Source: Bacteroidota bacterium (GTDB lineage: Bacteria; Bacteroidota; Ignavibacteria; UBA10030; SZUA-254). From it: a stretch of 64,000 nt of DNA. Position 1 is the first letter of the stretch. The number at the start of each line of letters is the position of its first letter. Shown piece by piece: positions 33,286-60,520 of this stretch. Where the stretch lies: NCBI GenBank assembly GCA_044449065.1, contig JBIOHP010000005.1, positions 107,374 to 171,373 on the forward strand, written 5' to 3'. The position numbers and the translations under genes were made by a program. The notes under the pieces were generated by a model. That model was not told the origin of the DNA and ran no database searches. It was given only the letters and a program-made list of their open reading frames with translations.

Positions 33286-36015
33286 ATGATTGGGCAGACG
33301 ATATCTCACTACAAAATTCTTGAGAAATTGGGAGAGGGCGGAATGGGTGTTGTCTACAAAGCCCAGGATACAAAACTTGATCGCTTCGTCGCGTTAAAAT
33401 TCTTATCTCCTCATCTTGCCTCTTCGGAACAGGATAAGTCCCGTTTCACCCAGGAGGCGAAAGCCGCAGCGGCGCTCAATCATCCGAATATTTGCACGAT
33501 CATCGATATTCAGGAAAATGACGGCGTCATGTTTATCGTAATGGAATTTGTTGATGGTCAGACATTGCGCGAGAAAAAGGCATCCATCACGTTTAAACAG
33601 GCAATCGATATTGGAATTCAGATAGCGGAGGGTTTAGGCGCGGCTCATGATAAAGGCATCGTGCACAGGGATATCAAACCCGAAAACATCATGATCCGAA
33701 GGGATGGCATCGCGCAAATAATGGACTTTGGACTTGCGAAACTTCGCGGCAGCGTTACGCGGCTGACAAAAGAGGGGAGCACAATCGGCACGGCAGGATA
33801 TATGTCGCCGGAACAAGTGCAGGGACAGGATATCGACCACAGGTCGGATATATTTTCGTTTGGAGTTTTACTGTATGAACTTATCACCGGTCAGCTTCCG
33901 TTTAAGGGCGTACATGAAACTGCATTGATGTATGAAATTGTGAATATGGAAGCGCCGCCGATGTCTTCGATTAAACCGGACATAGAGGCAACCCTCGACG
34001 CGATTGTTCTGGAATGTTTAGAAAAAGATCCCAACGAACGAACGCAATCTGCCAAGCAGGTATCCATAGATTTAAAACATTTTAAACGCGAGTCAACGCG
34101 ACAGCGGGTCAGCCGCATCACAACGGCAAAGCCGGTACAATCATATTCAAATGTTAAGCAACCGGAACCGCAGAACATCCAGCTTTCCAAATCCACCGGA
34201 TTGGCAGGTAAAATACCCTGGTTAATTTCCATCGTCTGCCTGATTGGGTTCTCAGTATTTGCCGGTCTTTATTTGAAGCGCCAGAATATTGATCCCCAGA
34301 TGGTACAGTCATATATTCTCCCGCCCGAAAATTCCAGTTTTGCCACCCATTCCGGAAACACGGGAGAAGGACACCTTGCGCTTTCACCGGACGGAAGCAT
34401 GCTCGCCTTCGTGTGCGCTGATAGTGCGGGCAAAACTCACTTAATGGTCCGCCCTTTAAATTCTATCGATGCAAAAGAACTTCCTTCGACCCAGGAGGCG
34501 GGCTATCCGTTCTGGTCGCCGGATAATAGATACATTGGTTTTTTCCAGGGTGGAAAACTGAAAAAAATTGAAGCGTCCGGCGGACCTTCGTTGACGATAT
34601 GCGACGCAGCGGACGGACGCGGCGCATCATGGAATCAAGATGGAATAATCATACTGGCGCCAAACCCGGCCGGACCAATTTATCAGGTATCCGAGGCAGG
34701 CGGAACCCCTGTCGCCATCACAAAATTTGACACCACAAGACATACCCACTCGCACCGCTGGCCCTTCTTCCTGCCGGATGGAAAACATTTCCTCTATTTT
34801 TCACGATCAAGTTTTGGCGGCGTTGAACGGGAAGAGGACGCTCTTTATACCGCCTCCCTGGACGGAAAAGATAATAAACGACTTATACCTGCAAAGGCAA
34901 ATGTGGCATACGTTTCGGGTATGTTGATCTATTTAAGCGATAAAACGCTAATGGCGCAACGCTTCCAACCTGATAAACTTGAACTTATCGGGGAAGCCAA
35001 GCCGATAGCCGAACCTATTGAGTATGACCTGGATTATAATAGAGCGATTTTTACTGTGTCCCAGAATGGCATCCTCTGTTATCAATCACGAAGCACAAAA
35101 GTGGGCTGGCAGTTGGAATGGCTTGACCGCAAAGGCAATTTGGTGGGTAAAATTGGCGAACCTGCCCAGATAGGATCTGCGGCGCTATCACCCGACGAAA
35201 AAAAAATCGCCTATGATGTCTATGATCCTCAATCAAAAAATAAGGATATATGGATTTATGAGCTCGCGCGGGGAATTAAAACAAGATTTACCTTCGATCC
35301 CTCTGTAGACGAATTGCCAAATTGGTCGCCCGATGGCAGCAAGATTATATTTCATTCAGATCGAAAGGGACACTATGATTTGTACCAAAAAACAACTGAC
35401 GGAGAAGGGAGCGAGGATGTACTCCTTGAATCTCCAGAAGCGAAATTTCCTTACGATTTCTCGAGCGACGGTAAATATTTCACCTACTCAGCCAACGATT
35501 CCCATACCGGATCGGACATCTGGATTCTTCCACTCACCGGCGACAGAAAACCAATCAGATTAGTGCAATCGGAATTCGATGATGATGTTTCACACTTTTC
35601 AAGGGATATGCGGTGGATTTCCTACCGGTCGAATGAATCAGGCAACTACGAACTTTATGTCCGACCATTTCTGGATGCTGAAGGGAAAATAGCAACTACC
35701 CAGGCGCGTAAATGGCAAATATCCGTGAATGGAATCGCGGTCAATTCAAGTGAGGAATGGAGCAAAAATGGGAAGGAATTTTATTACCTCTCCCAGGATA
35801 ATAAATTTATCGCGGTTGAGGTCAGGACAAACGGATCATCGTTCGAGATTGGCAACTCAAACGAATTGTTTGACGTCAAATCGAATACCGCTATTTCTTT
35901 TGTCGATGCAAGCGCTGACGGAAATAAATTTCTTTTCATCGTCACTGTAGGCGGAGAGGTTCATCCTCCCATTACACTGGTGACAAATTGGGATAAGGAA
36001 CTTAAGAACCAATGA
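33286..36015 (+). CDS. receptor Ser/Thr protein kinase K1: Hanks-type kinase, TM helix, PD40/TolB-like beta-propeller
   Basis: Gly-loop LGEGGMGVVYKA, VALKFL, HRDIKPENIM, DFG and GTAGYMSPE. TM helix IPWLISIVCLIGFSVFAGLYL. Repeated SPDG/FSPDG propeller motifs, 909 aa. Confidence 0.9.
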   Translation: MIGQTISHYKILEKLGEGGMGVVYKAQDTKLDRFVALKFLSPHLASSEQDKSRFTQEAKAAAALNHPNICTIIDIQENDGVMFIVMEFVDGQTLREKKASITFKQAIDIGIQIAEGLGAAHDKGIVHRDIKPENIMIRRDGIAQIMDFGLAKLRGSVTRLTKEGSTIGTAGYMSPEQVQGQDIDHRSDIFSFGVLLYELITGQLPFKGVHETALMYEIVNMEAPPMSSIKPDIEATLDAIVLECLEKDPNERTQSAKQVSIDLKHFKRESTRQRVSRITTAKPVQSYSNVKQPEPQNIQLSKSTGLAGKIPWLISIVCLIGFSVFAGLYLKRQNIDPQMVQSYILPPENSSFATHSGNTGEGHLALSPDGSMLAFVCADSAGKTHLMVRPLNSIDAKELPSTQEAGYPFWSPDNRYIGFFQGGKLKKIEASGGPSLTICDAADGRGASWNQDGIIILAPNPAGPIYQVSEAGGTPVAITKFDTTRHTHSHRWPFFLPDGKHFLYFSRSSFGGVEREEDALYTASLDGKDNKRLIPAKANVAYVSGMLIYLSDKTLMAQRFQPDKLELIGEAKPIAEPIEYDLDYNRAIFTVSQNGILCYQSRSTKVGWQLEWLDRKGNLVGKIGEPAQIGSAALSPDEKKIAYDVYDPQSKNKDIWIYELARGIKTRFTFDPSVDELPNWSPDGSKIIFHSDRKGHYDLYQKTTDGEGSEDVLLESPEAKFPYDFSSDGKYFTYSANDSHTGSDIWILPLTGDRKPIRLVQSEFDDDVSHFSRDMRWISYRSNESGNYELYVRPFLDAEGKIATTQARKWQISVNGIAVNSSEEWSKNGKEFYYLSQDNKFIAVEVRTNGSSFEIGNSNELFDVKSNTAISFVDASADGNKFLFIVTVGGEVHPPITLVTNWDKELKNQ

Positions 36016-36202
36016 TTGGTCAAACCATCTCACAATACACTATTATTGAAAAGCTGGGAGAGGGCGGCATGTCCCAAACTTTCCCACGAGCGCAGCGAGT
36101 GGAAGAAAGTTTGAGGATCTCCCGTTGTTTGGATTCCGCTTTGACAACGGGATTCCAAAAAGCGGAACCGCTGGAACACAGTGGAAGCGGGAGGCGTGGA
36201 CT
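36012..36202 (+). promoter_or_regulatory. kinase leader element L2 (variant B, lacking the 27-nt CCCGCC..GGCGGG hairpin insert)
   Basis: The uORF ATG overlaps the K1 stop (ATGA at 36012-36015). The uORF MIGQTISQYTIIEKLGEGGMSQTFPRAQ... ends in ATGA at the K2 ATG (36203). Confidence 0.7.
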
Positions 36203-38899
36203 ATGATTGGGCAGACAATATTTCACTACAAAATTCTTGAGAAATTGGGAGAGGGCGGTATGGGCATTGTTTATAAAGCCCACGATATAAAGCTGGATCG
36301 TTTTGTTGCTCTAAAATTCCTTCCCCAGCATCTCGCCGCTTCACAGCAGGATAAGAGCCGGTTTGCTCAGGAAGCAAAAGCCGCAGCAGCGCTCAATCAT
36401 CCTAATGTATGTTCCATTATCGACATTCAGGAATATGATGGACCCTCCTCCGCCGGGGCTCCGGCGGGCAAGCAGATGTTTATTGTTATGGAGTTTGTGG
36501 ATGGCGTCACCCTGCGGGAGAAAAAACAATCCATCAGTTTCAAACAGGCAATTGATATCGGCGTTCAAATCGCCGATGGGCTCGCAGCCGCGCATGAGAA
36601 GGGCATCGTCCACCGGGATATAAAACCGGAAAACATCATGATTCGAAAAGACGGCATCGCTCAGATTATGGATTTCGGGTTGGCAAAACTCCGGGGGAAT
36701 ATCACCCGGCTGACAAAGGAAGGCAGCACAATCGGCACGGCGGGGTACATGTCACCTGAACAAGTTCAGGGACAAGACACGGATCATCGTTCGGATATCT
36801 TTTCATTCGGCATTCTTCTGTATGAACTTTTTACGGGAGAATTGCCCTTCAAAGGAATCCATGAAACAGCGTTAATGTATGAAATTGTGAATGTTGAACC
36901 GGCGCCGATGTCATCTGTGAAACCGGAAATTGACCCATCTCTTGACGCCATCGTTCTGGAATGTTTAGAAAAAGATCCGAATGAGCGGACTCAGTCGGTA
37001 AAACAAGTCTCTGTTGATCTGAAACATTTCAAACGTGAAACGAGCCGTGAGCGCTTAACCCGGACAATTAAAACAAAACCGCTACAAAAAGACACTGGCA
37101 TTGGTAATACTGACCGGAGCGAATCAGTACAAACACCCCGCCGCAATTGGATCTGGCATGGTATTTACGGATCATTATTACTTGTACTTTTAATATATGT
37201 GTGGAAGCCATGGAACAAAGACCCAGCCGCTCTTCCTCCTCCCATGCATTTTAATGTGGACGTGCCACCTCGAGCTCCTTTGATAGGAGGCAGCGACGAT
37301 ATCACTATCTCTCCGGACGGAAAAAAAATTGTTTACGCCGGCTCGAATCCCTCCAATCCACAATTGTTCCTTCGGAAAATTGATCAACTGGATGTTCAGG
37401 GAATCCCTAACACGGAAGGAGCAGATGAACCGGTCTTTTCACCTGACGGACAATGGATTGCTTATGTTCAGAGCGACAAGATCAAGAAGGTTTCCATCCT
37501 CGGCGGCGCCCCCGAAATGTTATGTGGAACTCAAGGTTTACCCAGAGGTCTGTGGTGGGCTGAAGATAATAATATTTACTTTGGACACATCAGCCGGGCT
37601 TTATTTAAAGTACCTTCCGCAGGCGGTACACCAACCCGGATCACTACCCTCGACAGTGCAAATGGTGAAATCAGTCACCGGTACCCCCAGCTTCTGCCGG
37701 ATGGAAAAACCATACTCTTCACCATTAAACCGAATAACATATCTTCATTCAGCGACGCCATGATTGCCGTTCAACGATTGGGAACAAACGAGAAGAAAAT
37801 ATTAATCCACGGCGGAACCTACGGTCGTTTTCTCCCATCCGGGTACCTGGTTTATGTTCGTGAAAATACAATTTTTGCGGCGCGATTTGATCCGGATCGG
37901 CTTGAGATTCAAGGATCACCCCAGCCCATAACTCAGGGCGGGTGGCTCAACGAAGGTTCCGGAAGCGCTGGAATCAGTGTTTCAACTGCAGGAAATCTCA
38001 TCTATGTTCCAGAGGGCTTGATTGATTTAAAAAATACCGCTCTCGTTTGGATGGATCGTCAGGGAAAATCGTACCCGCTGCTTGATTCACTGGGTTCCTA
38101 TGGCGGAGTAACGGTTTCACCTGATAACCAAAAAATAGCTTTGAACCTACAGGCGGCAAATGATGATATATGGATTTATCAAATAGCCCGTGGGACACTC
38201 ACACGCCTAACATTCGGGGGCGGTAATAATAATTTCCCAATTTGGACTCCTGATAATAAGTATGTGGTATATAATGCTGAAAAAGGAAAATCTCCCAATA
38301 TCTACAGAAAACCCTGGGATGGAAGCGGGGAAGAAGAACGCCTGACGACAAGTGATGAGGCGCAATTTCCTTCTTCGATTAGCCCTGATGGTAAACTCCT
38401 TGCTTTCATCCAGAATTCCGATATATGGATATTACCGCTTGAGGGTGACCGGAAACCCTGGCGCTTTATCCAGTCGCAAGCCACTGAAGCAACTCCTATG
38501 TTTTCTCCCGATGGCCGTTGGATGGCATATGCATCAAACGAATCCGGAAAATTTGAGGTCTATGTTGTACCCTTTCCTAAACACGAAGGGAAGTGGCAGA
38601 TATCAAACGGCGGCGGCAATGGACCCATTTGGTCAAGAAATGGAAAAGAATTGCTCTATGGAAGCGGCACGTCTATGATGGCTGCCGAAATTACTCCTGG
38701 GCAATCATTCGATTTTTCCGTCCCCAAAAAAATATTGGAACTAACTTCGTCAAATGCTGTCGCATACGATGTAACCTCCGATGGAAACCGTTTCATTGTT
38801 GGTTTGGCTCGTAGGGGCATTTTTACGATTAATCATTTTAACATCATTCTTAACTGGACTACGGAGTTAAAAGAAAAATTTGCAGAGAATAAAAATTAA
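36203..38899 (+). CDS. receptor Ser/Thr protein kinase K2: kinase, TM, PD40 beta-propeller
   Basis: MIGQTIFHYKILEKLGEGGMGIVYKA, HRDIKPENIM, DFG. TM helix WIWHGIYGSLLLVLLIYVW. PD40 repeats. The track ORF is extended 78 nt upstream from a TTG. ATG at 36203. Confidence 0.9.
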   Translation: MIGQTIFHYKILEKLGEGGMGIVYKAHDIKLDRFVALKFLPQHLAASQQDKSRFAQEAKAAAALNHPNVCSIIDIQEYDGPSSAGAPAGKQMFIVMEFVDGVTLREKKQSISFKQAIDIGVQIADGLAAAHEKGIVHRDIKPENIMIRKDGIAQIMDFGLAKLRGNITRLTKEGSTIGTAGYMSPEQVQGQDTDHRSDIFSFGILLYELFTGELPFKGIHETALMYEIVNVEPAPMSSVKPEIDPSLDAIVLECLEKDPNERTQSVKQVSVDLKHFKRETSRERLTRTIKTKPLQKDTGIGNTDRSESVQTPRRNWIWHGIYGSLLLVLLIYVWKPWNKDPAALPPPMHFNVDVPPRAPLIGGSDDITISPDGKKIVYAGSNPSNPQLFLRKIDQLDVQGIPNTEGADEPVFSPDGQWIAYVQSDKIKKVSILGGAPEMLCGTQGLPRGLWWAEDNNIYFGHISRALFKVPSAGGTPTRITTLDSANGEISHRYPQLLPDGKTILFTIKPNNISSFSDAMIAVQRLGTNEKKILIHGGTYGRFLPSGYLVYVRENTIFAARFDPDRLEIQGSPQPITQGGWLNEGSGSAGISVSTAGNLIYVPEGLIDLKNTALVWMDRQGKSYPLLDSLGSYGGVTVSPDNQKIALNLQAANDDIWIYQIARGTLTRLTFGGGNNNFPIWTPDNKYVVYNAEKGKSPNIYRKPWDGSGEEERLTTSDEAQFPSSISPDGKLLAFIQNSDIWILPLEGDRKPWRFIQSQATEATPMFSPDGRWMAYASNESGKFEVYVVPFPKHEGKWQISNGGGNGPIWSRNGKELLYGSGTSMMAAEITPGQSFDFSVPKKILELTSSNAVAYDVTSDGNRFIVGLARRGIFTINHFNIILNWTTELKEKFAENKN

Positions 38900-38917
38900 T
38901 TTCTCACCAATTATCCG

Positions 38918-39132
38918 ATGATCGGAAAAACTATCTCACACTACAGGATTCTCGAGAAGCCCCGCCATAAAGACGGCGGGCAAGTTGGCGAGGGCGGAAT
39001 GTCCCAAAATCACCCACGCGCGTTTTTTGCAAGTGGTTGTGATTTTGCGGATCTCCCGTTGTTTGGATTCCGCTTTGACAACGGGATTCCAAAAAGCGGA
39101 ACCGTTGAGCGAAGCGAGAACGGGAACCCCCT
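38918..39132 (+). promoter_or_regulatory. kinase leader element L3 (variant A)
   Basis: uORF MIGKTISHYRILEKPRHKDGGQVGEGGMSQNHPRAFFASGCDFADLPLFGFRFDNGIPKSGTVERSENGNPL, with its stop overlapping the K3 ATG. Confidence 0.7.
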
Positions 39133-41805
39133 ATGATTGGACAGTCAATATCTCATTACAAAATCCTTGAGAAGCTGGGAGAAGGCGGGATGGGGATCGT
39201 CTATAAAGCAGAGGATACTAACCTCAAAAGAATTGTCGCATTGAAATTTTTACCCAGCCATCTTTCTGCATCGGAAGCCGACAAAGCGCGATTTATACAG
39301 GAAGCACAGGCGGCATCCTCGCTTAATCATCCCAATGTCTGCACTATTCACGATATCCAGGAACACGACGGGCAAATGTTCATCGTGATGGAATTTGTCG
39401 ACGGTCAAACATTACGGGAAAAAAAATCATCCATTACCATGAAACAGGCAATCGATATCGGCATCCAGATCGCTGATGGGCTTGCCGCCGCACATGAGAA
39501 AGGGATTATCCACCGGGATATCAAACCCGATAATATCATGGTCCGGAAGGATGGCATCGTTCAAATTATGGATTTCGGGTTGGCCAAGCTCAGAGGTGTC
39601 TCGAAATTAACGAAAGAAGGAAGCACAATCGGAACTGCAGGGTACATGTCGCCTGAACAAGTGCAGGGTTTAGAGACGGATCATCGTTCGGATATATTTT
39701 CTTTCGGTGTACTTTTATTCGAGCTTTTAACGGGACAACTCCCATTTAAAGGTGTCCATGAAACAGCGATTGCATACGAAATTGTAAACGTCGATGCTCC
39801 CCCTATGTCATCCATTAAACCTGAAATCGATTCAGCGCTTGATGCTATTGTTCTGGAATGTCTTGCAAAAGAACCTTCGGAACGATCCCAATCAATTGCG
39901 GAAGTTGCTAAAGATCTGCGGCGGTACAAACGGGAATCAAGCAGGCAGCATCTGAGCAGGTCATTCCCCGCGCAATCTGCAATACGTCAGATAGGCGCCG
40001 TGACTTCTGCCCCCACTGTTGCGATCACTCCTCAACGAAGCATTCTTCCGTGGGGAATTGCAGGGATGCTTCTCATTGTAACATCCATATTGCTATTTCG
40101 TCAATATTTCGCCTCGGCTGAACGTCAGCCCCTATTAATAGCTTCCATCGCTCCGCCCGATAGCGTATACATTCACTCGTACGGTCAGGCAGCAGGTCCC
40201 CCGGCAATTTCACCTGACGGCAGGACAATCATGTATTGTGGAGTGGCTTCTAACGGAATTACCCAGATTTATGTTCGTTCGCTTCATGAAAATGTTACGC
40301 GAGCACTGGATGGAACAAACTACGCGCAATATCCATTCTGGTCGCCGGATGGAAAACAGATCGGATTCTTCGCCGGAGGGAAAATCAAGAAGATAGAGGT
40401 CGATGGCGGTTCTCCTGTAACGGTTTGTGTTGCCATCAATCCCCGCGGCGGGACATGGAGCAGCGCTGGAGTGATTCTCTTCGCCCCCGATTACCAATCG
40501 CCGATCTCCCGGGTATCCGCCGATGGCGGGATTCCGGAGCCATTAACGAAATTAGACACCTCGCGCAATGAAGTATCGCATCGATGGCCCTTTGCTTTGC
40601 CTGATGGAAAACACTTTCTCTATTTTTCGCGTATAGCTAACAATTCCGGTCCCGCGGAGGGTCATGCCGTCTATGCTTCGTCGCTCGATGGAAAAGATAA
40701 CAGGTTGGTTCTCCGCACCAATTCCAATGCCGTCTACGCCGCCGGGTACTTGCTTTTTGTCCGGGGATCGACATTGATGGCGCAACAATTCGATCAATCC
40801 TCCGTGCAGCTAAAGGGCGATCCCGCTCCATTGGCGGAAGGTGTCATTGATGATCCCGGATTTAATCAATCGGTTTTTTCCGCATCGCAAACGGGGATCC
40901 TGATTTACCAGCCAGGAAATGTACGAGCCGGAGCAAAATTATTAATCACCGATCTCAACGGTAAAATAATTTCAACCCTAGGTGAGAGCATAGAAAACTT
41001 TCGCGTCCGTTATGCTCCTGACGGAGAGCATATCATTGCCAGCATTTTCGATCCTAAGTTGTTGCGATTAAATATCTGGGAATATGATCTCCATACCGGC
41101 GGTAGGAACCGGATCACCTCAGGCACCGGCGAAGATAACGCGATCCCCTCTCCGACCAGCGATGATATTATTTATTCTTCCCAGCGAACCGGCGTTTGGA
41201 ATTTGTACGAAAAATCGATGAGTGGTCAGGGTGGTGATTCAGCCCTTCACCCATCCCCAAGCTATGATTTATCTCTTGATTGGTCGCGCGACGGTTCCCT
41301 TGTATTATTTTCGAGAGTAGAACCATCTAAAACCCAAGCAGATTTGTGGATCATGCAAATGAAGAATGCACATGAACAATATCCGGTGGTAAACACGGAG
41401 TTTGACGAAGTTGGGGGGCGGTTCTCACCCGATGGTAAATGGATCGCTTATGTTTCGAACGAGAGCGGCGACTACGAAGTTTATATAAAATCAGCCGTGA
41501 AAACGGAAACTCAAAGTTGGAAGATTTCATCAGCAGGCGGATACTTTCCCTGCTGGGCAGGCAGCAGCAATGAATTGTGTTATGTGAGCAGTGAGAATAA
41601 AATGATGCTTGTCACTCTCCGGTACAAAGATAAGATGGTCGAGGTTGCGAGTATCCATTCTTTATTTAGTGTACCCGCATTTTTGGAGAGTTATGATATC
41701 TCCCCCAATGGAAAAACGATGGTAATCAATCGCAGTCTTGAAATGCAAAAATCGGCGCCGCTGACTATGCTCGTCAACTGGCAGGAGGAGTTGAAACAGA
41801 AATGA
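39133..41805 (+). CDS. receptor Ser/Thr protein kinase K3: kinase, TM, PD40 beta-propeller
   Basis: LGEGGMGIVYKA, HRDIKPDNIM, DFG, TM helix ILPWGIAGMLLIVTSILLF, PD40 repeats, 890 aa. Confidence 0.9.
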   Translation: MIGQSISHYKILEKLGEGGMGIVYKAEDTNLKRIVALKFLPSHLSASEADKARFIQEAQAASSLNHPNVCTIHDIQEHDGQMFIVMEFVDGQTLREKKSSITMKQAIDIGIQIADGLAAAHEKGIIHRDIKPDNIMVRKDGIVQIMDFGLAKLRGVSKLTKEGSTIGTAGYMSPEQVQGLETDHRSDIFSFGVLLFELLTGQLPFKGVHETAIAYEIVNVDAPPMSSIKPEIDSALDAIVLECLAKEPSERSQSIAEVAKDLRRYKRESSRQHLSRSFPAQSAIRQIGAVTSAPTVAITPQRSILPWGIAGMLLIVTSILLFRQYFASAERQPLLIASIAPPDSVYIHSYGQAAGPPAISPDGRTIMYCGVASNGITQIYVRSLHENVTRALDGTNYAQYPFWSPDGKQIGFFAGGKIKKIEVDGGSPVTVCVAINPRGGTWSSAGVILFAPDYQSPISRVSADGGIPEPLTKLDTSRNEVSHRWPFALPDGKHFLYFSRIANNSGPAEGHAVYASSLDGKDNRLVLRTNSNAVYAAGYLLFVRGSTLMAQQFDQSSVQLKGDPAPLAEGVIDDPGFNQSVFSASQTGILIYQPGNVRAGAKLLITDLNGKIISTLGESIENFRVRYAPDGEHIIASIFDPKLLRLNIWEYDLHTGGRNRITSGTGEDNAIPSPTSDDIIYSSQRTGVWNLYEKSMSGQGGDSALHPSPSYDLSLDWSRDGSLVLFSRVEPSKTQADLWIMQMKNAHEQYPVVNTEFDEVGGRFSPDGKWIAYVSNESGDYEVYIKSAVKTETQSWKISSAGGYFPCWAGSSNELCYVSSENKMMLVTLRYKDKMVEVASIHSLFSVPAFLESYDISPNGKTMVINRSLEMQKSAPLTMLVNWQEELKQK

Positions 41806-52285: not shown

Positions 52286-55005
52286 TCGGACAAACTATTT
52301 CGCATTACAAAATTCTTGAGAAGTTAGGTGAAGGCGGCATGGGCGTCGTCTATAAAGCCCAGGATACAAAACTTGATCGCTTTGTCGCGCTGAAGTTCCT
52401 CCCCTCCCAACTCAATGCCTCCGAACAGGACAAGGCGCGGTTCACGCAAGAGGCGAAATCCGCGGCAGCGCTGAACCATCCGAATGTCTGTTCGATCATC
52501 GACATACAGGAACACGATGGAACGATGTTTATCGTGATGGAGTTTGTGGATGGCCAGACCCTCCGCGACAAAATGAAGACCGCCGGAAGTGCGATTGAAG
52601 GTTCTACACTTCCCTTGAAACAGGCGATCGATATCGGAATCCAGATATCAGATGGGCTTGCTGCGGCGCATGAAAAAGGAATTGTACACCGGGACATCAA
52701 ACCGGAAAATATCATGATCCGCAAAGACGGCATCGCGCAGATTATGGATTTCGGATTGGCAAAACTTCGCGCGAGCGGCAGCAAGATAACCCGTCTTACA
52801 AAAGAAGGCAGCACGGTAGGCACAGCAGGATATATGTCGCCGGAGCAGATTCAGGGACAGGACACCGACCCCCGCTCGGATATTTTCTCTCTGGGAGCGC
52901 TGTTGTACGAACTATTTACGGGGGAATTACCCTTTAGAGGAGTTCATGAAACCGCGTTAATGTACGAAATCGTCAACGTTGACCCGGCGCCATTGTCGGC
53001 GGTGAAACCGGAAATCGATTCTTCACTCGATGCAATTGTCTTAGAGTGCCTTGCCAAATATCCCTCGGAACGGTTCCAGTCTGTCGCAGAGGTTGGCAAG
53101 GAACTGAGGAGATTCAAGCGCGAATCATCACGGCAAAAAGTTAGCAGAATAACCTCTGCCCGCCCGGCATACGTTCAATCCGCAACCATTCCGGTAATGG
53201 CGCCAACGCCTGCTCCTGTTCAGATTCAACAACAGACCCGTCTGCCCTGGATTGTGAGTGGACTCCTTTTTCTTGTTGCTGTGGCGTCAATCATTTTTCA
53301 TTTCCTTACTCCCCCTTCACATGTGGAAAATCGAGTCACGAGATCATTGATTTTACCCCCCGCGAAAACAAATTTTAATATGCAGGTCGGCGGGCACCTT
53401 GCCATCTCCCCCGATGGCAATAGCATCGCATTTGTTGGAACCGATTCCAGCGGCGTCGACCACGTTTGGGTCCGTCCAATCAATTCGTTAACGGCTATCT
53501 CGCTCTCTGGAACAGAAGGCGCAACATACCCCTTCTGGTCCCCCGACAGCCGCACAATAGGATTCTTTGCGGGCGGCAAGCTCAAGAAGATCGAAGCAAC
53601 AGGCGGACCTGTTCTTACGATCTGCGATGCTTCCGATGGGCGCGGGGGAACATGGAATGAGGCGGGCATTATCGTGTTTTCCGCTGGTCCGAGCGATCCG
53701 CTCTCCAAGGTATCATCAGCCGGAGGAATCCCGGCGAGGATAACTGTATTGGATACTTCCCACCATGAAAATAGTCACCGCTGGCCCTGGTTTCTACCCG
53801 ATGGAAAACATTTTCTCTATACGACTCAATCTCAGACGACAGGCGGAACGGATAATGACGCAATCAGAATTTCAACCATCGATTCCTCCATGAACAAAAC
53901 ATTGATCCCTGGCAATTCGAATACGTGTTTTGTTAATGGGCATATTTTATTTATCCGGCAAGGGACATTGATGGCGCAACCATTTGATCCCGGAAAACTC
54001 GAAATGACCGGTGACGCTATTCCAATCGCGGAACAAATCCAATATGGAGCGGCGCGCAGCAGGGGGATGTTTTCCTCATCGTTGAACGGAGTGCTTATTT
54101 TTCAGAGCGGCGAAAATCAAACGCAACGGGTTGCCATATTCGACCGCACCGGCAACCGGACGCATCTTGTTACCGATCTCAATGCGTCTAATCCGAAGTT
54201 TTCACCGGACCAAAGTCACATCGTCTACCATATTATTGATCCCCAGTCCCGCAACGCCGATATCTGGGTTCACGAACTTTCGAGGGGAGTGAGTTCCCGA
54301 TTAACATTTAACCCTGCGTTTGAAATACAACCGTTTTGGTCTCCTCACGGGGACACCGTTGTTTTCGGCTCCAACCGGAAGGGCGTGTACAATCTCTACA
54401 TCAAAAGCGCAAACGGTGCAGGCGATGAACAACTCATTTTGGAATCGAACCGCGACAAGTATGTCAGCGACTGGTCGCGCGATGGACGGTATTTGGCATT
54501 CACCACGACCGGAGATCCAAAAACAAAAGCTGATCTCTGGGTGCTTCCGTTTTTTGGCGACCGGAAACCGATACCTTTTGTCCAAACTGAGTTCAATGAA
54601 GGAAACGGCAGTTTTTCCCCGGATTCTCGCTGGATTGCCTATCAATCCGATGAAAGCGGAAGAAGTGAAATCTATGCCCGCTTACTCGATGGTTCCGGAG
54701 GAAAGTTCCAGATATCGACAAATGGCGGTAGAAAACCGTTCTGGAAATTAGATGGCAGGCAGCTCTTTTTCACCTCAACCGACAGAAAATTACAGGTTGC
54801 GTACATTAAGGAAAACGCATCTTCCCTTTTTGTCGACAGTGTAGCCACATTGTTTGATTTTGAATCGCGCGGTATCATAGCTAACAATATCGACGATGTT
54901 AGCAACGACGGCAAGCAAGTTCTCGCCCTAGTTACGGACTCCAAACAAACTTCGACGCCCATTACACTTGTCGTGAACTGGGACGAGGAGTTGAGGAAGA
55001 AATGA
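52282..55005 (+). CDS. receptor Ser/Thr protein kinase K8: kinase, TM, PD40 beta-propeller (no leader; its ATG overlaps the K7 stop)
   Basis: LGEGGMGVVYKA, HRDIKPENIM, DFG, TM helix LPWIVSGLLFLVAVASIIF, PD40 repeats. ATGA overlap with K7 at 52282-52285. Confidence 0.9.
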   Translation: MIGQTISHYKILEKLGEGGMGVVYKAQDTKLDRFVALKFLPSQLNASEQDKARFTQEAKSAAALNHPNVCSIIDIQEHDGTMFIVMEFVDGQTLRDKMKTAGSAIEGSTLPLKQAIDIGIQISDGLAAAHEKGIVHRDIKPENIMIRKDGIAQIMDFGLAKLRASGSKITRLTKEGSTVGTAGYMSPEQIQGQDTDPRSDIFSLGALLYELFTGELPFRGVHETALMYEIVNVDPAPLSAVKPEIDSSLDAIVLECLAKYPSERFQSVAEVGKELRRFKRESSRQKVSRITSARPAYVQSATIPVMAPTPAPVQIQQQTRLPWIVSGLLFLVAVASIIFHFLTPPSHVENRVTRSLILPPAKTNFNMQVGGHLAISPDGNSIAFVGTDSSGVDHVWVRPINSLTAISLSGTEGATYPFWSPDSRTIGFFAGGKLKKIEATGGPVLTICDASDGRGGTWNEAGIIVFSAGPSDPLSKVSSAGGIPARITVLDTSHHENSHRWPWFLPDGKHFLYTTQSQTTGGTDNDAIRISTIDSSMNKTLIPGNSNTCFVNGHILFIRQGTLMAQPFDPGKLEMTGDAIPIAEQIQYGAARSRGMFSSSLNGVLIFQSGENQTQRVAIFDRTGNRTHLVTDLNASNPKFSPDQSHIVYHIIDPQSRNADIWVHELSRGVSSRLTFNPAFEIQPFWSPHGDTVVFGSNRKGVYNLYIKSANGAGDEQLILESNRDKYVSDWSRDGRYLAFTTTGDPKTKADLWVLPFFGDRKPIPFVQTEFNEGNGSFSPDSRWIAYQSDESGRSEIYARLLDGSGGKFQISTNGGRKPFWKLDGRQLFFTSTDRKLQVAYIKENASSLFVDSVATLFDFESRGIIANNIDDVSNDGKQVLALVTDSKQTSTPITLVVNWDEELRKK

Positions 55006-55216
55006 TCGGTCAAATAATTTCACATTATAAGATTCTTGAAAAGCCCCGCCACAAAGATGGCGGGCAAGTCGGCGAAGGCGGAATGTCCCAAACTTTCCCA
55101 CAAGCGCAGCGAGTGGATGAAAGTTTGAGGATCTCCCGTTGTTTGGATTCCGCTTTGACAACGGGATTCCAAAAAGCGGAACAGCTGGAACGCAGTGGAA
55201 GCGGGAGGCGTGGACT
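55002..55216 (+). promoter_or_regulatory. kinase leader element L7 (variant B)
   Basis: The uORF ATG overlaps the K8 stop. uORF MIGQIISHYKILEKPRHKDGGQVGEGGMSQTFPQAQRVDESLRISRCLDSALTTGFQKAEQLERSGSGRRGL, with its stop overlapping the K9 ATG. Confidence 0.7.
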
Positions 55217-57589
55217 ATGATCGATCAAACGATATCTCATTACAAAATTCTTGAGAAGTTAGGTGAAGGCGGCATGGGAGTGGTCTACAAAGCTGAAGAT
55301 ACGAATCTCAAGCGCATCGTCGCCCTGAAATTCTTGCCTCATCATCTCACGACCAACGACGCAGAAGGCGCGCGGTTTATCCAAGAGGCACAGGCGGTTG
55401 CCGCGCTCAATCATCCGAACATCTGCGCGATTTATTCTTTCGGCGAGCATGAAGGCACCCACTTTATCGAGATGGAATTGGTGGAGGGAGTCACTCTGCG
55501 TCATAAGCTGCCGATCCAGAAGCAGGCCGACGCCGTGAGCTACGCAATTCAAATCGGCGAGGCACTGCAAGAAGCACACAGTAAGGGGATCGTGCACCGC
55601 GATGTTAAAGCTGAAAATATCATGACGAATACCAAGAACCAGATTAAGGTTATGGACTTTGGCTTGGCGAAGCTCAAGGGATCGTTGAAGCTCACCAAAA
55701 AGTCGAGCAGGATCGGCACGCTCGCTTATATGGCGCCTGAGCAGATTCAAGGCGGAGAAGTGGATGCGAGGAGCGACCTGTTTTCGTTCGGTATTGTGGT
55801 GTTTGAAATGCTCACGGGCAGGACGCCATTCCGCGGCGAGCACGAGGCTGCGACGATTTATTCGATCGTGAACGAGCCGCCGGAGTCACTCTTGAAACTC
55901 CGGCCGGACGTTTCGCCGGAGCTTGAGCGGATCGTTCACCGCGCAGTTGAAAAAGACCCTGAGGACAGGTATCAATCGGCCGCGGATATGGTGAGCGAAC
56001 TGCGGCGTGTGCAGAAGCAATCGACGAAAGTTTCGAGAACGATGGAGAAGGGGATTGCTCCGGCATTGACATCCGAAACGAGGCTCGGTGCAGCAGCGGC
56101 ATCGGATGTGGCGACTTCGCCGAATCGAACCCGGCAATTCATGATCGCCGGAATTGTCCTCGCGGTCATCGCCGCCGTGATCGTTGGGTATTTATTGTTC
56201 TCAACCAAGCGTCAGACAATTGACTCGCTTGCGGTTCTGCCGTTTGTCAACGTCTCGACCGATCCCGAAAAGGAATATCTCACTGAAGGCGTCACGGAAA
56301 ATATCACTAATAAACTTTCACAGTTTTCCGGACTTCGGGTCATTCCGAGGAGTTTGGTTGCGCGCTATAAAGGAGCAGACGTTGATCCCCGCGCCGCCGG
56401 TGCGGATCTGAAAGTCGGCGCAGTGTTGACGGGAAGAATTATTCAGCGCGGTGACTCACTCGATATTCAGACCGAGCTGATCGATGTGCACAATGTTTCG
56501 CAAATTTGGGGTGAGCACTATAACCGCCCATCGTCCGATTTAGTGGAGATCCAAGATGATATCATCAAGAATATTTCTGGAAAAATCAAAGGGGAAGCAA
56601 GCGCGGAAGAAAACAACCGCCTCATTCATTCCCGGGCAGTCGATCCCGAAGCGTACAAACTTTATTTGCAGGGGATGTATTTTTGGAACAAACGCTCTGC
56701 TGAAGGCAACAGAAAAGCGATCGAATATTTTGAGAACGCTGTTGGGAAAGACCCCACCTATGCGCTCGCGTATATCGGCATCGCGGACGCGTACATATTG
56801 GCGGCTGTCTTAAGCAGTCATCCTGCCGATTTTCGTGAGCGCATAAAGGCGGCGGCGTTGAAAGGGTTGGAGTTGGACAGCGCTTTGCCCGAAGCGCATG
56901 CTGCGCTGGGCGATGAACTGGCCTATTTTGAATTCGATCTTAAAGGCGCGGAACGGGAGCTTCGCCGGGCAATTACGCTCAATCCAAATTATGCGACCGG
57001 TCATCATTGGCTCGGAGAATTTCTTGTCGCCGTGGGTAAATACGACGAGGGACTTGCGGAATACCGGCGCGCAATGGAACTCGATCCGGTATCGCTCGCC
57101 ATCAGCTCCGACTACGCGTATGGCTTGTATTTTGCCCAACAATTTGACCGCTCTATCGAAGAGTTGAAAAAGATTATTGAAACCGATCCGAATTTTGTTC
57201 GCGCGCATTTCTATATCACTCTTCCGTATCTCATGAAGGGGATGCCGAAGGCAGCGTTCGACGAATTCATCAAAGGGATGGTTGCAGAGGGAGACAGCGC
57301 CGCAACAATTGCGGCGATACAACATGCTTTTGCCGTCTCCGGTTACAATGGGGTTGTAAAACTGCAGTTGGAACTAGCGGACACACTACCCATCGCTACT
57401 GCAATCTTTGACGCCGCAAGATGCTATGCCTTTCTTGGCGATAAGAATAGCGCTCTGGCGACATTGGAGAAAGAATACGAGGAAAGGCAATATAGCGCCC
57501 TAGGAATACTCGTCGAACCGATGTTTCACAATCTGCGAAAAGAACCAAGGTTTATCGCCCTGTTCAACAAGCTGGAAAACAACAAGTGA
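55217..57589 (+). CDS. receptor Ser/Thr protein kinase K9: kinase, TM, alpha/beta module, TPR
   Basis: LGEGGMGVVYKA, HRDVKAENIM, DFG, TM helix FMIAGIVLAVIAAVIVGYLLF, AVLPFVNVSTDPEKEYLTEGVTENITNKL, TPR repeats. ATG at 55217; the track ORF is TTG-extended. Confidence 0.9.
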   Translation: MIDQTISHYKILEKLGEGGMGVVYKAEDTNLKRIVALKFLPHHLTTNDAEGARFIQEAQAVAALNHPNICAIYSFGEHEGTHFIEMELVEGVTLRHKLPIQKQADAVSYAIQIGEALQEAHSKGIVHRDVKAENIMTNTKNQIKVMDFGLAKLKGSLKLTKKSSRIGTLAYMAPEQIQGGEVDARSDLFSFGIVVFEMLTGRTPFRGEHEAATIYSIVNEPPESLLKLRPDVSPELERIVHRAVEKDPEDRYQSAADMVSELRRVQKQSTKVSRTMEKGIAPALTSETRLGAAAASDVATSPNRTRQFMIAGIVLAVIAAVIVGYLLFSTKRQTIDSLAVLPFVNVSTDPEKEYLTEGVTENITNKLSQFSGLRVIPRSLVARYKGADVDPRAAGADLKVGAVLTGRIIQRGDSLDIQTELIDVHNVSQIWGEHYNRPSSDLVEIQDDIIKNISGKIKGEASAEENNRLIHSRAVDPEAYKLYLQGMYFWNKRSAEGNRKAIEYFENAVGKDPTYALAYIGIADAYILAAVLSSHPADFRERIKAAALKGLELDSALPEAHAALGDELAYFEFDLKGAERELRRAITLNPNYATGHHWLGEFLVAVGKYDEGLAEYRRAMELDPVSLAISSDYAYGLYFAQQFDRSIEELKKIIETDPNFVRAHFYITLPYLMKGMPKAAFDEFIKGMVAEGDSAATIAAIQHAFAVSGYNGVVKLQLELADTLPIATAIFDAARCYAFLGDKNSALATLEKEYEERQYSALGILVEPMFHNLRKEPRFIALFNKLENNK

Positions 57590-57623: not shown

Positions 57624-57838
57624 ATGATGAGCCACACGATTTCCCACTACAAGCTTCTCGAGAAGCCCCGCCATAAAGACGGCGGGCAAGTCGGCGAGGG
57701 CAACATGTCCCAAACTTTCCCACGAGTGCGGCGAGTGGATGGAAGTTTGAGGATCTCCCGTTGTTTGGATTCCGCTTTGACAACGGGATTCCAAAAAGCG
57801 GAACAGCTGGAACGCAGTGGAAGCGGGAGGCGTGGACT
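57624..57838 (+). promoter_or_regulatory. kinase leader element L8 (variant B)
   Basis: uORF MMSHTISHYKLLEKPRHKDGGQVGEGNMSQTFPRVRRVDGSLRISRCLDSALTTGFQKAEQLERSGSGRRGL, with its stop overlapping the K10 ATG. Confidence 0.7.
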
Positions 57839-60520
57839 ATGATTGGGCAAACAATATCTCATTACAAAATTCTTGAGAAGTTAGGCGAGGGCGGGATGGG
57901 CGTAGTGTACAAAGCCGAAGATACCAAGCTCAAGCGGGTCGTCGCGTTGAAGTTTTTACCGGAACATCTTTCTGCATCCTCGGTGGACAAGGAAAGATTT
58001 ATCCAGGAAGCACAGGCGGCTTCAGCTCTGAATCATCCCAATGTTTGCACGATACACGACATTCAGGAACACGATGGAAAAATGTTCATTGTTATGGAAT
58101 TCGTTGACGGGCAAACACTACGGCAAAAGAAGGATTCAATATCCCAGAAACAAGCAATTGAAATTGGAATTCAGATTGCCGATGGTCTTGCCGCCGCGCA
58201 TGAAAAAGGAATTGTTCACCGCGATATCAAGCCCGAAAACATTATGATACGAAAAGATGGCTCTGCCCAGATCATGGATTTCGGACTGGCAAAACTCAGA
58301 GCAAGCGGGAGTAAAATTACCCGCCTTACAAAGGAAGGCAGCACAGTCGGAACCGCGGGCTATATGTCGCCGGAACAGGTACAAGGACATGAAGTTGATC
58401 ATCGCTCTGATATTTTTTCTTTCGGTGTTTTGCTCTATGAACTGATAGCAGGTCAGCTTCCATTCAGGGGCGTGCATGAAACAGCGTTGATGTACGAGAT
58501 TGTCAATGTCGATCCTGCGCCAATTTCAACGATTAAACCGGAAATTGATCCCAACCTCGATAGTATAATTCTTGATTGCCTTGAGAAAGACCCTAAAGAA
58601 CGCTGCCAATCAGTTGCCGAAGTTGCCAGGGATCTCCGCCGGATAAAGCGTGAATCGAGCCGGCAGCGCGCCAGCCGCATAACTTCAGTACGACCAATTT
58701 CGCCCAAACAAACGCCTATAGTTACGCCTTCTGCCGCGATGCAAACGAAACGCCAGATAGTGTGGCCCCTGCTCTGCGGTATCCTGGGTGTTGCTCTCCT
58801 CGCATCGATCTGGATTCTGGTGAGTAGAGGGAAATCGTCACATCCCATTATACGGTTGGGAATAACATTACCGAAGGGCGAATCGGTGGAGTCGCAATAT
58901 TTCTCGGCTATTGCAATTTCTCCGGATGGTACGCAAATTGTTTATAGGACGAATGGGAGATTGTATAAGCGAAGCATGGATAGCTTCACTCCGGAAGCTA
59001 TTCCCGGCACAGAGAACAGTGAAAATCCATTCTTCTCTCCCAACGGTAAATGGATCGGTTTTTTCTCAGACGGGAAACTTAAAAAGGTATCGTTAAGCGG
59101 AGGGACACCGTTGGACGTGACCGATCAAATGGGAAATCGCGGCGCGGTCTGGACGAAGGATGGAAAAATCATTTTTGCACCCACAGCGCGGCAAGGGCTT
59201 TTTTGCATCAATGAGGACGGCAGCGACCGCCGGCAGCTTACCACTGTTGATAGCACGAAGAATGAGCGCACTCATCGGTGGCCCCAGATCATGCCCGATG
59301 GAAAAACCATATTGTTTACCATAGGCACAATGGACAGCCCCGATTATTATGAGGACGCAACGATAGGCGCTGTAAACATCGAAACCGGTGAGCGGAAAGT
59401 TGTCATGAAAGGAGCGAGCACGACCTACTATCTGGGCACCGGAGATCTTCTCTATTCACATGCAGGGATTTTGTTCGCTGTGCCATTCGATTCTAAGAAC
59501 ATTGAAGTCAAAGGAACCGCATTCGCGGTGCTGGACAATGTCTCCGGCGACCCGACAACAGGAGCAACCAATTATTCAATTTCCGATAATGGAACGCTTG
59601 CATATGTTCCGGGTTCAACAAATCTTCTCAATCGAACCCTGGCTCTTATCGATCGAAATGGAACAACTTCCATTCTCCCGGCTCCGAGCCAGAATTATAT
59701 GGAACCACGCATCTCTCCGGATGGTAAACAGGTTGCCGTGGTTATCGGGTCTGCAAAAGATTACGATATCTGGCTGTATGATATGCAACGACATACGATG
59801 AGCCGATTTACCTTCGGGGGAATTAACCGTTCTCCTGTTTGGTCGCCCGATAGCAAGCGCATCGCGTATTCATACAATGAAACCGGAAATCGGAAAATTA
59901 TCATCCGACAAGCGGACGGCGGCGGGACGCCTGAAGAAATTAAAATGACCTATGATCGAACCTATGTACTGTGCTGGTCGCGGGACGGTTCGTCGATTAT
60001 CTTTAATGGGATCCGCGCTTCTACAGGGTACGATATACTTGTTCTTCCCGTAAGGGGAAATCACCAGCCATGGGCTTTTCTTGATACTCGGTTCGATGAA
60101 CGGGAAGCGTCCCTTTCACCCGATGGCAGATGGATCGCCTTTACCTCAAATGAGACCGGCTCACAACAAATTTACGTTCGACCGTTTCCCCATGGCAACG
60201 GAAAATGGCAGATCTCAACCGATCAGGGAGGAGATGCAAATTGGTCACCGGATGGGAAAACGCTCTTTTATCAAAGTCAATCCGAGCTTAGGGCTGTTTC
60301 GATCATCGGCACTACCTCGTTGGTTGTTGGAGAATCAAAAGTTCTTGTGAGAGATTTTCAGAGAATCTTTGTGGAAAGCGGAATTAATTACGATCCCACT
60401 CCGGATGGGAAATATTTTCTATGCACGAAACCTGCAGAAGGGGATGATATGCTGCGACAGATCAATATAGTGTTAAACTGGTTCGATGAAATTCAATTAA
60501 AGGCAGGCGCAAACAAATGA
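57839..60520 (+). CDS. receptor Ser/Thr protein kinase K10: kinase, TM, PD40 beta-propeller
   Basis: LGEGGMGVVYKA, HRDIKPENIM, DFG, TM helix IVWPLLCGILGVALLASIWILV, PD40 repeats (SPDG motifs), 893 aa from the ATG at 57839. Confidence 0.9.
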   Translation: MIGQTISHYKILEKLGEGGMGVVYKAEDTKLKRVVALKFLPEHLSASSVDKERFIQEAQAASALNHPNVCTIHDIQEHDGKMFIVMEFVDGQTLRQKKDSISQKQAIEIGIQIADGLAAAHEKGIVHRDIKPENIMIRKDGSAQIMDFGLAKLRASGSKITRLTKEGSTVGTAGYMSPEQVQGHEVDHRSDIFSFGVLLYELIAGQLPFRGVHETALMYEIVNVDPAPISTIKPEIDPNLDSIILDCLEKDPKERCQSVAEVARDLRRIKRESSRQRASRITSVRPISPKQTPIVTPSAAMQTKRQIVWPLLCGILGVALLASIWILVSRGKSSHPIIRLGITLPKGESVESQYFSAIAISPDGTQIVYRTNGRLYKRSMDSFTPEAIPGTENSENPFFSPNGKWIGFFSDGKLKKVSLSGGTPLDVTDQMGNRGAVWTKDGKIIFAPTARQGLFCINEDGSDRRQLTTVDSTKNERTHRWPQIMPDGKTILFTIGTMDSPDYYEDATIGAVNIETGERKVVMKGASTTYYLGTGDLLYSHAGILFAVPFDSKNIEVKGTAFAVLDNVSGDPTTGATNYSISDNGTLAYVPGSTNLLNRTLALIDRNGTTSILPAPSQNYMEPRISPDGKQVAVVIGSAKDYDIWLYDMQRHTMSRFTFGGINRSPVWSPDSKRIAYSYNETGNRKIIIRQADGGGTPEEIKMTYDRTYVLCWSRDGSSIIFNGIRASTGYDILVLPVRGNHQPWAFLDTRFDEREASLSPDGRWIAFTSNETGSQQIYVRPFPHGNGKWQISTDQGGDANWSPDGKTLFYQSQSELRAVSIIGTTSLVVGESKVLVRDFQRIFVESGINYDPTPDGKYFLCTKPAEGDDMLRQINIVLNWFDEIQLKAGANK

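Follow-up and report, generated by a model that had tools for sequence, protein, structure and literature searches.

A recurrent hairpin-bearing leader at the 5′ ends of tandem receptor-type kinase genes in an Ignavibacteria genome

Results

The kinase array

The 64,000-nucleotide stretch of DNA analysed here, referred to throughout as the window, belongs to contig JBIOHP010000005.1 of a Bacteroidota bacterium from the class Ignavibacteria (assembly GCA_044449065.1). Between positions 33286 and 60520 it holds ten open reading frames (ORFs) for Hanks-type Ser/Thr kinases, K1 to K10, all on the plus strand and arranged head to tail, and eight of these (all except K5 and K8) are preceded by a cassette of 191–215 nt, found by repeat search and upstream alignment, that we call the leader. 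An earlier note on this DNA had described ten plus-strand kinases with intact catalytic motifs and no pseudokinase among them, and both Pfam and our motif check agree with it, coordinates included. All ten proteins match Pfam Pkinase (PF00069) at E 1e-53 to 1e-57, well over the gathering score, and all ten keep GEGGMG, VA[LI]K, HRD[IV]KxxN, DFG and [SA]PE. The activation segment of K4, K6 and K9 reads APE; the SPE motif that the note had given to every kinase is found in the others. Judged by these motifs, the ten kinases are predicted to be catalytically competent.

The proteins fall into two sensor kinds, a division drawn in the same note and supported for both sets by Pfam. The P-type kinases K1, K2, K3, K8 and K10 carry PD40 repeats (Pfam E 5e-19 to 4e-35), and the T-type kinases K4, K5, K6, K7 and K9 carry TPR repeats behind an alpha/beta module with the signature LPFxN...Y(L/F)(S/T)(D/E)G(I/L/V)TE, which gives weak Pfam matches to TolB_N (K4), LpoB (K5) and FlgO (K6). 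K1 (33286–36015) consists of a kinase, one membrane helix (residues about 310–330) and two TolB-like beta-propellers, and the remaining P-type genes lie at 36203–38899 (K2), 39133–41805 (K3), 52282–55005 (K8) and 57839–60520 (K10, the array's final gene). K4 (42017–44392) has a kinase, a membrane helix at residues 307–329, the alpha/beta module at 338–457 and a TPR solenoid at 464–788, and the other T-type genes occupy 44469–46598 (K5), 46818–49202 (K6), 49901–52285 (K7) and 55217–57589 (K9). The order along the array, P,P,P,T,T,T,(CBS),T,P,T,P, is as first described, and the word 'alternating' that had been applied to the two architectures does not fit it, since there is no strict alternation.

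Nine of the kinases have a single hydrophobic helix near residue 305–325. K5 has none (maximum hydropathy 1.15), and neither has its orthologue L6_1 at the locus L006 (7867–9996, about 75–79% identical; L numbers denote loci outside the window). The P-type sensor matches solved TolB in sequence (E 3e-14), the T-type sensor gives sub-threshold matches to the CadC/HilA profile, and none of the ten kinases reaches an NCBIfam equivalog cut-off. We conclude that the P-type sensors are TolB-like PD40 beta-propellers, paired and periplasmic, in five kinases, and that the alpha/beta module plus TPR of the T-type matches the CadC periplasmic sensor fold, a refinement of the 'TolB_N+TPR' description. 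This CadC-like sensor is periplasmic in four kinases and K5 is its soluble version, so that nine members of the array are single-pass receptor kinases of PknB-like plan. The sensor of K5 is probably cytoplasmic, to judge from the missing helix, which is odd for a domain otherwise known from the periplasm. From this architecture, each paralogue would probably detect a different periplasmic ligand and phosphorylate cytoplasmic targets. The combination of a Ser/Thr kinase with TPR or propeller domains has long been known as an architecture class (PMC1262709), and the kinases are further members of known kinase and sensor kinds in an ordinary array.

Anatomy of the leader

The eight leaders, all on the plus strand, form two variants, A before K1, K3, K6 and K7, and B before K2, K4, K9 and K10. 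Within a variant they are 90–100% identical from about −175 to +40 relative to the kinase ATG, and outside these limits identity is 50–70%. Four-fold degenerate sites in the kinase genes adjoining the leaders are only 22–48% identical, that is, saturated, and the intergenic leader DNA is thus much better conserved than the genes that it adjoins.

Each leader opens with a start codon followed by kinase-like codons (MIGQTISHYKILEK) that differ between copies mainly by silent or conservative changes. A small hairpin, H0 (CCCGCC-ACAAAGAC-GGCGGG), then takes the place of a Leu codon in all copies but one, and after it come GGCGAGGGCGGNATG, which codes for GEGGM, and a long 17-bp hairpin that we call P1. 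Further on, the stem CUCCCGUU...AACGGGAG surrounds a nested hairpin, UUCCGCUUU...AAAGCGGAA, and the leader closes with a Shine-Dalgarno-like GGGAG ahead of the real kinase ATG. The window contains no further copy of the nested-hairpin core. Compensatory changes in P1 and indels of −4, +1 and +3 nt distinguish variant A from variant B.

Leader 1 (variant A, 33080–33285) begins with GTG and has a degenerate H0, P1 at 33152–33211 (79.9 bits against the covariance model described below) and a terminal hairpin with the nested insert; its upstream open reading frame (uORF) of 69 aa ends in a TGA that overlaps the K1 ATG. The uORF is 72 aa long in the other three A copies, namely leader 3 (38918–39132, with H0 and P1 at 38999–39058, 83.6 bits), the diverged leader 6 (46603–46817, GTG start, with H0 and P1 at 46684–46743, 69.4 bits, and three extra compensatory pairs) and leader 7 (49686–49900, P1 at 49767–49826, 82.4 bits), which begins 3 nt past the stop of the CBS gene. 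Among the B copies, leader 2 (36012–36202) is the sole one to lack H0, and its 64-aa uORF runs from an ATG over the K1 stop to a TGA over the K2 ATG, with P1 at 36069–36124 (76.2 bits). The displaced ATG likewise overlaps the preceding kinase stop in leader 4 (41802–42016, over the K3 stop, with H0 and P1 at 41883–41938, 78.1 bits) and in leader 9 (55002–55216, over the K8 stop, P1 at 55083–55138, 74.7 bits). Leader 10 lies at 57624–57838, with P1 at 57705–57760 (74.5 bits), and the uORF of each of these last three copies is 72 aa long.

Two of the small hairpins have a distribution of their own. H0, a 24-nt hairpin (CCCGCCACAAAGACGGCGGGCAAG, read as PRHKDGGQV) present at 33115–33132 and in six other leaders of the window, has a degenerate copy at L020 1186–1209 that sits after codon 2 rather than codon 14, and by this placement it appears to behave as a separate in-frame mini-insert. 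The nested hairpin (GGATTCCGCTTTGAACGGGATTCCAAAAAGCGGAAC) stands alone at L002 3955–4025, in the Bacteroidota metagenome-assembled genome (MAG) contig JAGWND010000007, with no kinase adjoining and bracketed by an 8-nt inverted repeat, ATGCCCGA...TCGGGCAT; this small hairpin may itself be mobile.

The upstream reading frame and its coupling to the kinase start

The leaders whose reading frames we examined, from six source genomes, were the eight of the window, two in L006, three in L007 and one each in L009, L013, L019 and L020. Five lack P1, among them the two of L006, which have a different spacer, and the uORF at L007 7055–7210, upstream of the first kinase there. Measured between displaced start and real ATG, the length is 2 mod 3 in 16 of 16 leaders, across 11 different lengths from 98 to 215 nt, and in all 16 the uORF frame is free of stops and ends in the TGA of an ATGA that overlaps the kinase ATG. 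The other frames carry stops (both of them in 15 of the 16). Extra insertions of 24, 30 and 48 nt in L020 and L021 are all multiples of three. Several loci were found by way of called ORFs, which biases them towards open frames, and the distance from P1 to the ATG is not conditioned by that bias. Taken together, these regularities argue well, if indirectly, for translation of the uORF and for the importance of its termination at the kinase ATG. Because the leader is always an open frame stopping on that ATG, ribosomes from the old start could hand over to the kinase, in the manner of the established coupling by overlapping stop and start codons (PMC12548453); a uORF-coupled leader also has a precedent (PMC11260477).

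The 76-nt spacer between K4 and K5 contains no P1 and a 24-aa ORF (44398–44472, plus strand) whose TGA overlaps the K5 ATG, which extends the stop-on-start rule to a junction without P1. K7 and K8 are coupled directly, the K7 stop overlapping the K8 ATG (ATGA) without a leader between.

We additionally considered occlusion of the ribosome binding site (RBS) by the terminal hairpin, P2, as a general mechanism and dropped it, as the leaders of other genomes fold without it: folding predicts RBS sequestration only in window variant A, and in L013, L020 and L009 the Shine-Dalgarno sequence lies free just 3′ of P2.

An annotation error that recurs at these genes is also accounted for by the leader. 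For K2, K4, K9 and K10 the longest ORF starts from a TTG 78 nt ahead of the ATG, which adds 26 residues (MFGFRFDNGIPKSGTAGTQWKREAWT), and the NCBI deposit of K4 is this TTG-start form of 817 aa (P0001). The extension is the variant-B leader read in the kinase frame (36125–36202, 41939–42016, 55139–55216 and 57761–57838), and the orthologues do not have it, so the TTG start is probably mis-called; for K2 the true start is the ATG at 36203, not the TTG at 36125. The 64–72-aa 'hypothetical' genes called in front of the kinases have the same origin.

That NCBI and JGI both call the uORFs as genes could indicate that they encode a small protein with a function of its own, such as a decoy of the kinase N-terminus, and the first 14 residues do vary mainly by synonymous or conservative changes. 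Such a pattern is what recently displaced original starts would be expected to show, and the rest of the peptide behaves otherwise: its C-terminal half shows no relation from one genome to the next, the same invariant nucleotides are translated by A and B in different frames into unrelated peptides, and the changes in P1 are compensatory in the RNA and non-conservative in the protein. We regard a small-protein function as highly improbable.

P1 as a structured RNA

A search with the translated leader returned the uORFs as annotated hypothetical proteins of the source MAG, one of them (P0123) on a second contig, of 28.9 kb, along with some nine related small ORFs from further metagenomes and MAGs; in a set of 5.8 billion proteins, the uORFs found amount to about 12 clusters. 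The copies in L009, L013, L017, L019, L020 and L021 and two in L007 follow a common plan of a kinase-like start ending in GGNATG, P1 and a terminal hairpin, the displaced start being truncated in L007. Outside the window the terminal hairpin is CCGCC-GUUGUUU-GGCGG and variants of it, followed by a Shine-Dalgarno-like sequence and the kinase ATG. By inspection this hairpin has compensatory variants (CCCGCC/GGCGGG, CCCGAC/GUCGGG and CCCGCU/AGCGGG), and the more complex core seen in the window looks like the terminal hairpin with a small hairpin inserted.

Covariation in P1 was measured on 16 distinct sequences from seven sources. In this set 98.5% of the cells are paired and both sides have changed in nine of the 17 pairs. 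None of 500 shuffles reaches the observed values on four of five measures, and two of 500 do so for pair types; in slid controls pairing is 34–44%. G-U pairs occur on the sense strand only, and in accordance with this the covariance model scores the sense strand at 52–86 bits and the antisense strand at 20 bits at most. Over the ~200 kb searched, the model found 17 matches, all oriented alike and placed at the same kind of site, and no match outside kinase starts. The P1 of L009, which comes from another metagenome, is 90–92% identical to window variant A.

The peptides that span P1 are unrelated between variants (SQNHPRAFFASGCDF, SQTFPRAQRVDESL, SQNFLRTLSVSS), and the invariant centre of the leader is read in different frames by A and B. 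Unrelated peptides and shifted frames over P1 point to selection on the nucleic acid, and on this comparative evidence we take P1 to be a conserved sense-strand RNA structure and the middle of the leader not to be protein-coding. Rfam 15 gave no match at gathering thresholds across the window and none at E ≤ 1 in 32800–61500. Scans of genome and metagenome contigs for exact 21-mers of the leader core returned only a chance match in a Verrucomicrobia gene (L001, L003, L004) and the stand-alone hairpin of L002, and a P1 scan of viral contigs returned one chance match in GC-rich coding DNA. P1 is thus an undescribed and well-supported RNA hairpin motif, absent from Rfam and tied to one kinase family.

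The 5′ arm of P1 (GTCCCAAAATCACCCACG, for example at 49767–49790) resembles kinase codons 22–27 (GTCTATAAAGCCCACGA, coding for VYKAHD). Going by this resemblance, an inverted duplication of a truncated kinase 5′ end may have been the origin of P1.

Stable hairpins with U-rich loops between cistrons suggest another role, in which P1 and P2 would be processing, stabilising, attenuator or terminator elements that set the stoichiometry of the ten kinases and the uORF would be incidental. REP-type stem-loops stabilise upstream mRNA segments in enterobacterial operons, and on the minus strand H0 resembles an intrinsic terminator. A promoter and terminator scan, however, found no enrichment of either kind of site and no U run after P1 or P2 on the sense strand. 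P1 also stands before K1 and K7, which follow non-kinase genes, and an incidental uORF would not hold its frame onto the ATG over 11 lengths. An intercistronic role of this sort is, in our judgement, unlikely.

Spread of the leader between genes

The conservation of the leaders beside saturated kinase genes indicates that the leader is much younger than the genes behind it and was copied recently across anciently diverged paralogues, as far as sequence divergence can tell. Scanned with the P1 model, the junctions of the kinase array in L008 are ATGA overlaps or short unrelated spacers with no P1, and they include the relic starts ATGATTGACCAG and ATGATCGACC. At L007 14801–15000, past the third kinase, three successive kinase-like starts (two of them displaced and nested) have a P1 leader and another kind of hairpin-rich insert, CCCTCTCCCAAATTGGGAGAGGG, between them, and no intact kinase follows; this arrangement points to serial insertion and decay, read from the sequence of this one site.

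In each window leader the N-terminal codons are present twice, once at the displaced start and once at the real one. The left copy varies towards its 5′ end but not towards its 3′ end, and the right copy shows the opposite, with its variation at the 3′ end, as expected from recombination within the ~60-nt N-terminal repeat. Such a pattern could be left by a circular intermediate that integrated or by a break that was repaired with a donor locus as template. Gene conversion with the N-terminal coding sequence as homology arms would be the simplest route and is proposed here as a model.

Near-identical copies beside genes with saturated silent sites could also be the mark of a selfish, non-autonomous repeat (REP- or MITE-like, that is, like repetitive extragenic palindromes or miniature inverted-repeat transposable elements, or else homology-driven) that has no regulatory role and whose surviving copies are in frame because coupling was kept. 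The presence or absence of the leader differs between syntenic genomes, P1 is a long, near-perfect hairpin, the small hairpins are nested or change position (leader 2 has no H0, and in L020 it is shifted), and the nested hairpin occurs by itself in an unrelated Bacteroidota MAG (L002), all of which would suit such an element. The usual traits of a transposon (terminal inverted repeats, dispersed copies and a transposase) are missing from the window, where copies lie at kinase 5′ ends on the plus strand; no target duplications are seen besides the 60-nt N-terminal repeat. That all 17 P1 matches share one orientation and one kind of site also speaks against it, and the likeness of the L009 P1 to variant A suggests a constraint on sequence beyond pairing. 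We consider a purely selfish leader a possibility, though a rather doubtful one.

We entertain just as tentatively a related account, in which the P1 cassette is a homology-guided, non-autonomous leader that inserts within the first 20 codons of one kinase family and restores an RBS and start, so that the old start is turned into a coupling uORF.

Several known kinds of element were set aside. P1 and P2 have no GTTRRRY core by inspection and no integrase was found in the window, which does not fit an integron attC array. A diversity-generating retroelement was rejected for want of a reverse transcriptase in the window, and a retron, an omega-RNA or IS200/IS605 ends were rejected as there is no reverse transcriptase or TnpB, no Rfam match, and the motifs are wrong. 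A bypassing or intron-like element that restores one kinase frame was also discarded, the downstream gene having a complete start of its own.

Age of the array and its orthologues

K4 and K1 have 100% identical counterparts in an NCBI MAG entered as 'Bacteroidota bacterium'. Searches with the two sensor types each returned at least 8,000 scored homologues, and among the matches listed the best homologues are 60–75% identical and come from Bacteroidota, Ignavibacteria and Ignavibacteriota MAGs. Kinases in tandem are found elsewhere, with three in L005/L006, three in L007 and five in the P0004 contig. The most similar arrangement is that of L008, which has at least eight kinases in the order P,P,P,T,T,T,P,T. 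These follow a gene for a 252-aa ABM-domain protein (1204–1962, PF03992), just as in the window an ABM-domain gene of 252 aa (32142–32900, plus strand, Pfam ABM E 3.5e-13) forms the 5′ border of the array.

Ectodomain trees were built from the window kinases together with kinases of other genomes. The ectodomains of window paralogues are 21–51% identical to one another, whereas identity to orthologues in other genomes is 70–73% for K4, 79% for K5 (paired with L6_1), 63% for K6 (with L8_6), 49% for K2 (with L8_1) and 42% for K3 (with L8_7). Since window genes pair with genes of other genomes and the paralogues stand far apart, the duplications are older than these genomes. Judged by these trees, the kinase paralogues are ancient and the array is not the lineage-specific expansion that the earlier note had supposed; the case that the note itself had named as refuting its reading, a stable set of orthologues in related genomes, largely applies.

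The kinase domains behave differently from the sensors. P-type kinase domains are mutually 75–85% identical regardless of genome and sometimes pair within one genome (K1 with K2, L8_1 with L8_7), which could reflect strong constraint, some homogenisation, or both. In the window the sensor type tracks the kinase clade for the P clade and for K4, K6 and K9, and a comparison of kinase and sensor trees, which had been proposed as a check for domain shuffling, gave no sign of it there. One likely case lies outside, in L8_3 (L008 7322–9958), where a T-clade kinase that is 62–72% identical to K4, K6, K9 and L8_4 is joined to a divergent P-type propeller; from its two halves, this protein is likely a recombinant between neighbouring paralogues.

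That kinase cores are far better conserved than sensors had led to the proposal that the array is a lineage-specific expansion of defence, surveillance or envelope-stress receptors, with near-identical N-termini marking a signalling core under recent diversification. The 21 N-terminal residues are indeed nearly identical, and TolB-like and CadC-like periplasmic sensors are compatible with envelope sensing. The N-terminal sequence is, however, a trait that orthologues share family-wide across many MAGs and no core particular to this array, although there is also local homogenisation at the DNA level, which reaches about 40 nt into the coding sequence. As to defence, the PADLOC models PD-T4-6 and mad6 match the kinase domains at E 1e-70 to 1e-97 over residues ~1–330, but these matches are confined to the generic Hanks fold (residues 1–300), and the neighbours are housekeeping genes, a phosphatase and cargo of the type IX secretion system (T9SS), with no adjacent defence genes; nothing specific to defence was found. 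With ancient paralogues, closer orthologues in other genomes and an L008 array behind the same ABM gene, a recent expansion of this kind is improbable.

Other features of the region

Within the array, a 144-aa CBS-pair protein is encoded at 49248–49682 (plus strand; Pfam CBS E 3e-25, two stretches), between K6 and leader 7. Overlapping the stop of K10, a relic kinase start (ATGATAGGG, MIG...) read directly from the sequence is followed by unrelated sequence (60517–60654, plus strand), and is probably what remains of a lost eleventh kinase gene.

The array is flanked by housekeeping genes, T9SS cargo and a GAF-PP2C phosphatase, in a chromosomal context, and no transposase, integrase or reverse transcriptase was found in the 64-kb window. 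The phosphatase gene (GAF-SpoIIE, PP2C-type; 30223–31509, plus strand; Pfam SpoIIE E 5e-55, GAF_2 E 2e-16) lies two genes, about 1.8 kb, upstream of the array, and its proximity makes it a candidate counter-acting phosphatase for the kinases. In L017, a SpoIIE/STAS/HATPase partner-switching set lies a few kb upstream of the P1 leader.

For ~3 kb past the array (61000–64000) no ORF exceeds 88 aa on either strand. Only short fragments are present, and some on the minus strand resemble bits of a larger broken gene; Rfam gave no match there, and the region may be a decayed gene or a poor assembly. At L013 2698–4580, in a large kinase cluster on the JGI contig Ga0645779_00013, a kinase is split into three ORFs of 51, 318 and 257 aa, which is either a frameshifted pseudogene or a sequencing error.

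Discussion

The explanation that we favour, with moderate confidence, is that the array is a translationally chained operon of receptor kinases with a family-specific leader that spreads by gene conversion. Consecutive genes would be chained in translation either by a stop/start overlap, as in the ATGA of K7/K8, or by a leader of 191–215 nt between them. The leader keeps the displaced ancestral start and the first 14–20 kinase codons and adds P1 and the terminal U-loop hairpin P2, which in the window carries the nested small hairpin and is followed by GGGAG and a fresh start. Ribosomes that initiate at the old start would translate across the hairpins and pass to the kinase by termination-reinitiation, and a translated uORF would at the same time shield the spacer from polarity.

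Several observations weigh against this explanation. The known distribution of the leader is narrow (the 12 or so uORF clusters), and the covariation comes from few independent lineages, as the eight window copies are near-duplicates. A near-perfect hairpin of 17 bp is also the expected look of a REP-like selfish repeat, and the gene-conversion route is a model. Part of the leader sample was found through called ORFs, which favours open frames, and the RNA unfolding at the RBS that folding predicts for one variant is not conserved. Finally, we infer from sequence the translation of the uORF, any regulatory effect and, more broadly, the function of the leader.

The kinase array itself adds little to what is known. 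Ignavibacteria-like and other environmental bacteria commonly have receptor Ser/Thr kinases with a TPR or propeller sensor, a group that is unstudied there, and the present locus is a single conserved example; the leader is the notable part. Its evolutionary signature is unusual in that the old start and N-terminal codons are kept as an in-frame uORF before a regenerated start. If the leader is functional, it would provide a handle on the post-transcriptional co-regulation of a battery of sensor kinases, and if it is selfish, it would be a clean case of an element that survives in translationally coupled operons by preserving their coupling. Were the leader homology-guided, as in the more tentative account above, many paralogous sensor kinases could be placed under one RNA-level control, for example a common P1-binding protein or small RNA.

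Comparison with known systems

The array kinases share their kinase domain with the PASTA kinases (PknB/Stk1, NF033483), but have no PASTA repeats and no PASTA match in Pfam. Against the NCBIfam model PknB_PASTA_kin they score 315–340 bits where the cut-off is 450, and the match covers residues 8–295 only. TolB of the Tol-Pal system and the P-type kinases have the PD40 beta-propeller in common. TolB is soluble and periplasmic, with an N-domain and one propeller; in the array the propeller region is ~560 residues long, which leaves room for two propellers, and is joined to the kinase via a membrane helix. The score against TIGR02800 (TolB) is 88.7 bits where the cut-off is 343, and these proteins are not Tol-Pal components. 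The sensor fold of CadC/ToxR-like regulators, an alpha/beta subdomain with a helical bundle, is also found in the T-type kinases, which score 42–58 bits against the CadC profile (cut-off 400). CadC and HilA have a winged-helix DNA-binding output, whereas the T-type output is a Ser/Thr kinase; the helical part in the array is a longer, canonical TPR array with a TPR_END_plus cap, and K5 lacks the anchor.

Like the leaders, REP/REPIN sequences, MITE-like repeats and Rickettsia palindromic elements (RPEs) are short, highly similar hairpin repeats that are transcribed and, in the case of RPEs, translated in frame. Unlike them, the leader keeps a single orientation and is confined to the 5′ ends of genes of one kinase family. 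In place of short target duplications it has a 60-nt coding repeat on its flanks, and no RAYT or transposase accompanies it.

The closest parallels to the arrangement of the uORF are the ppe2 B12 riboswitch-uORF of M. tuberculosis and the MS2 coat–lysis junction, where, as in the array leaders, an upstream frame ends on or by the main start and the leader contains RNA structure. The array leader differs from these in that no ligand aptamer was recognised in it and occlusion of the RBS is not conserved. Its uORF opens with a copy of the first 14–20 codons of the main gene, and the whole leader is repeated before eight paralogues.

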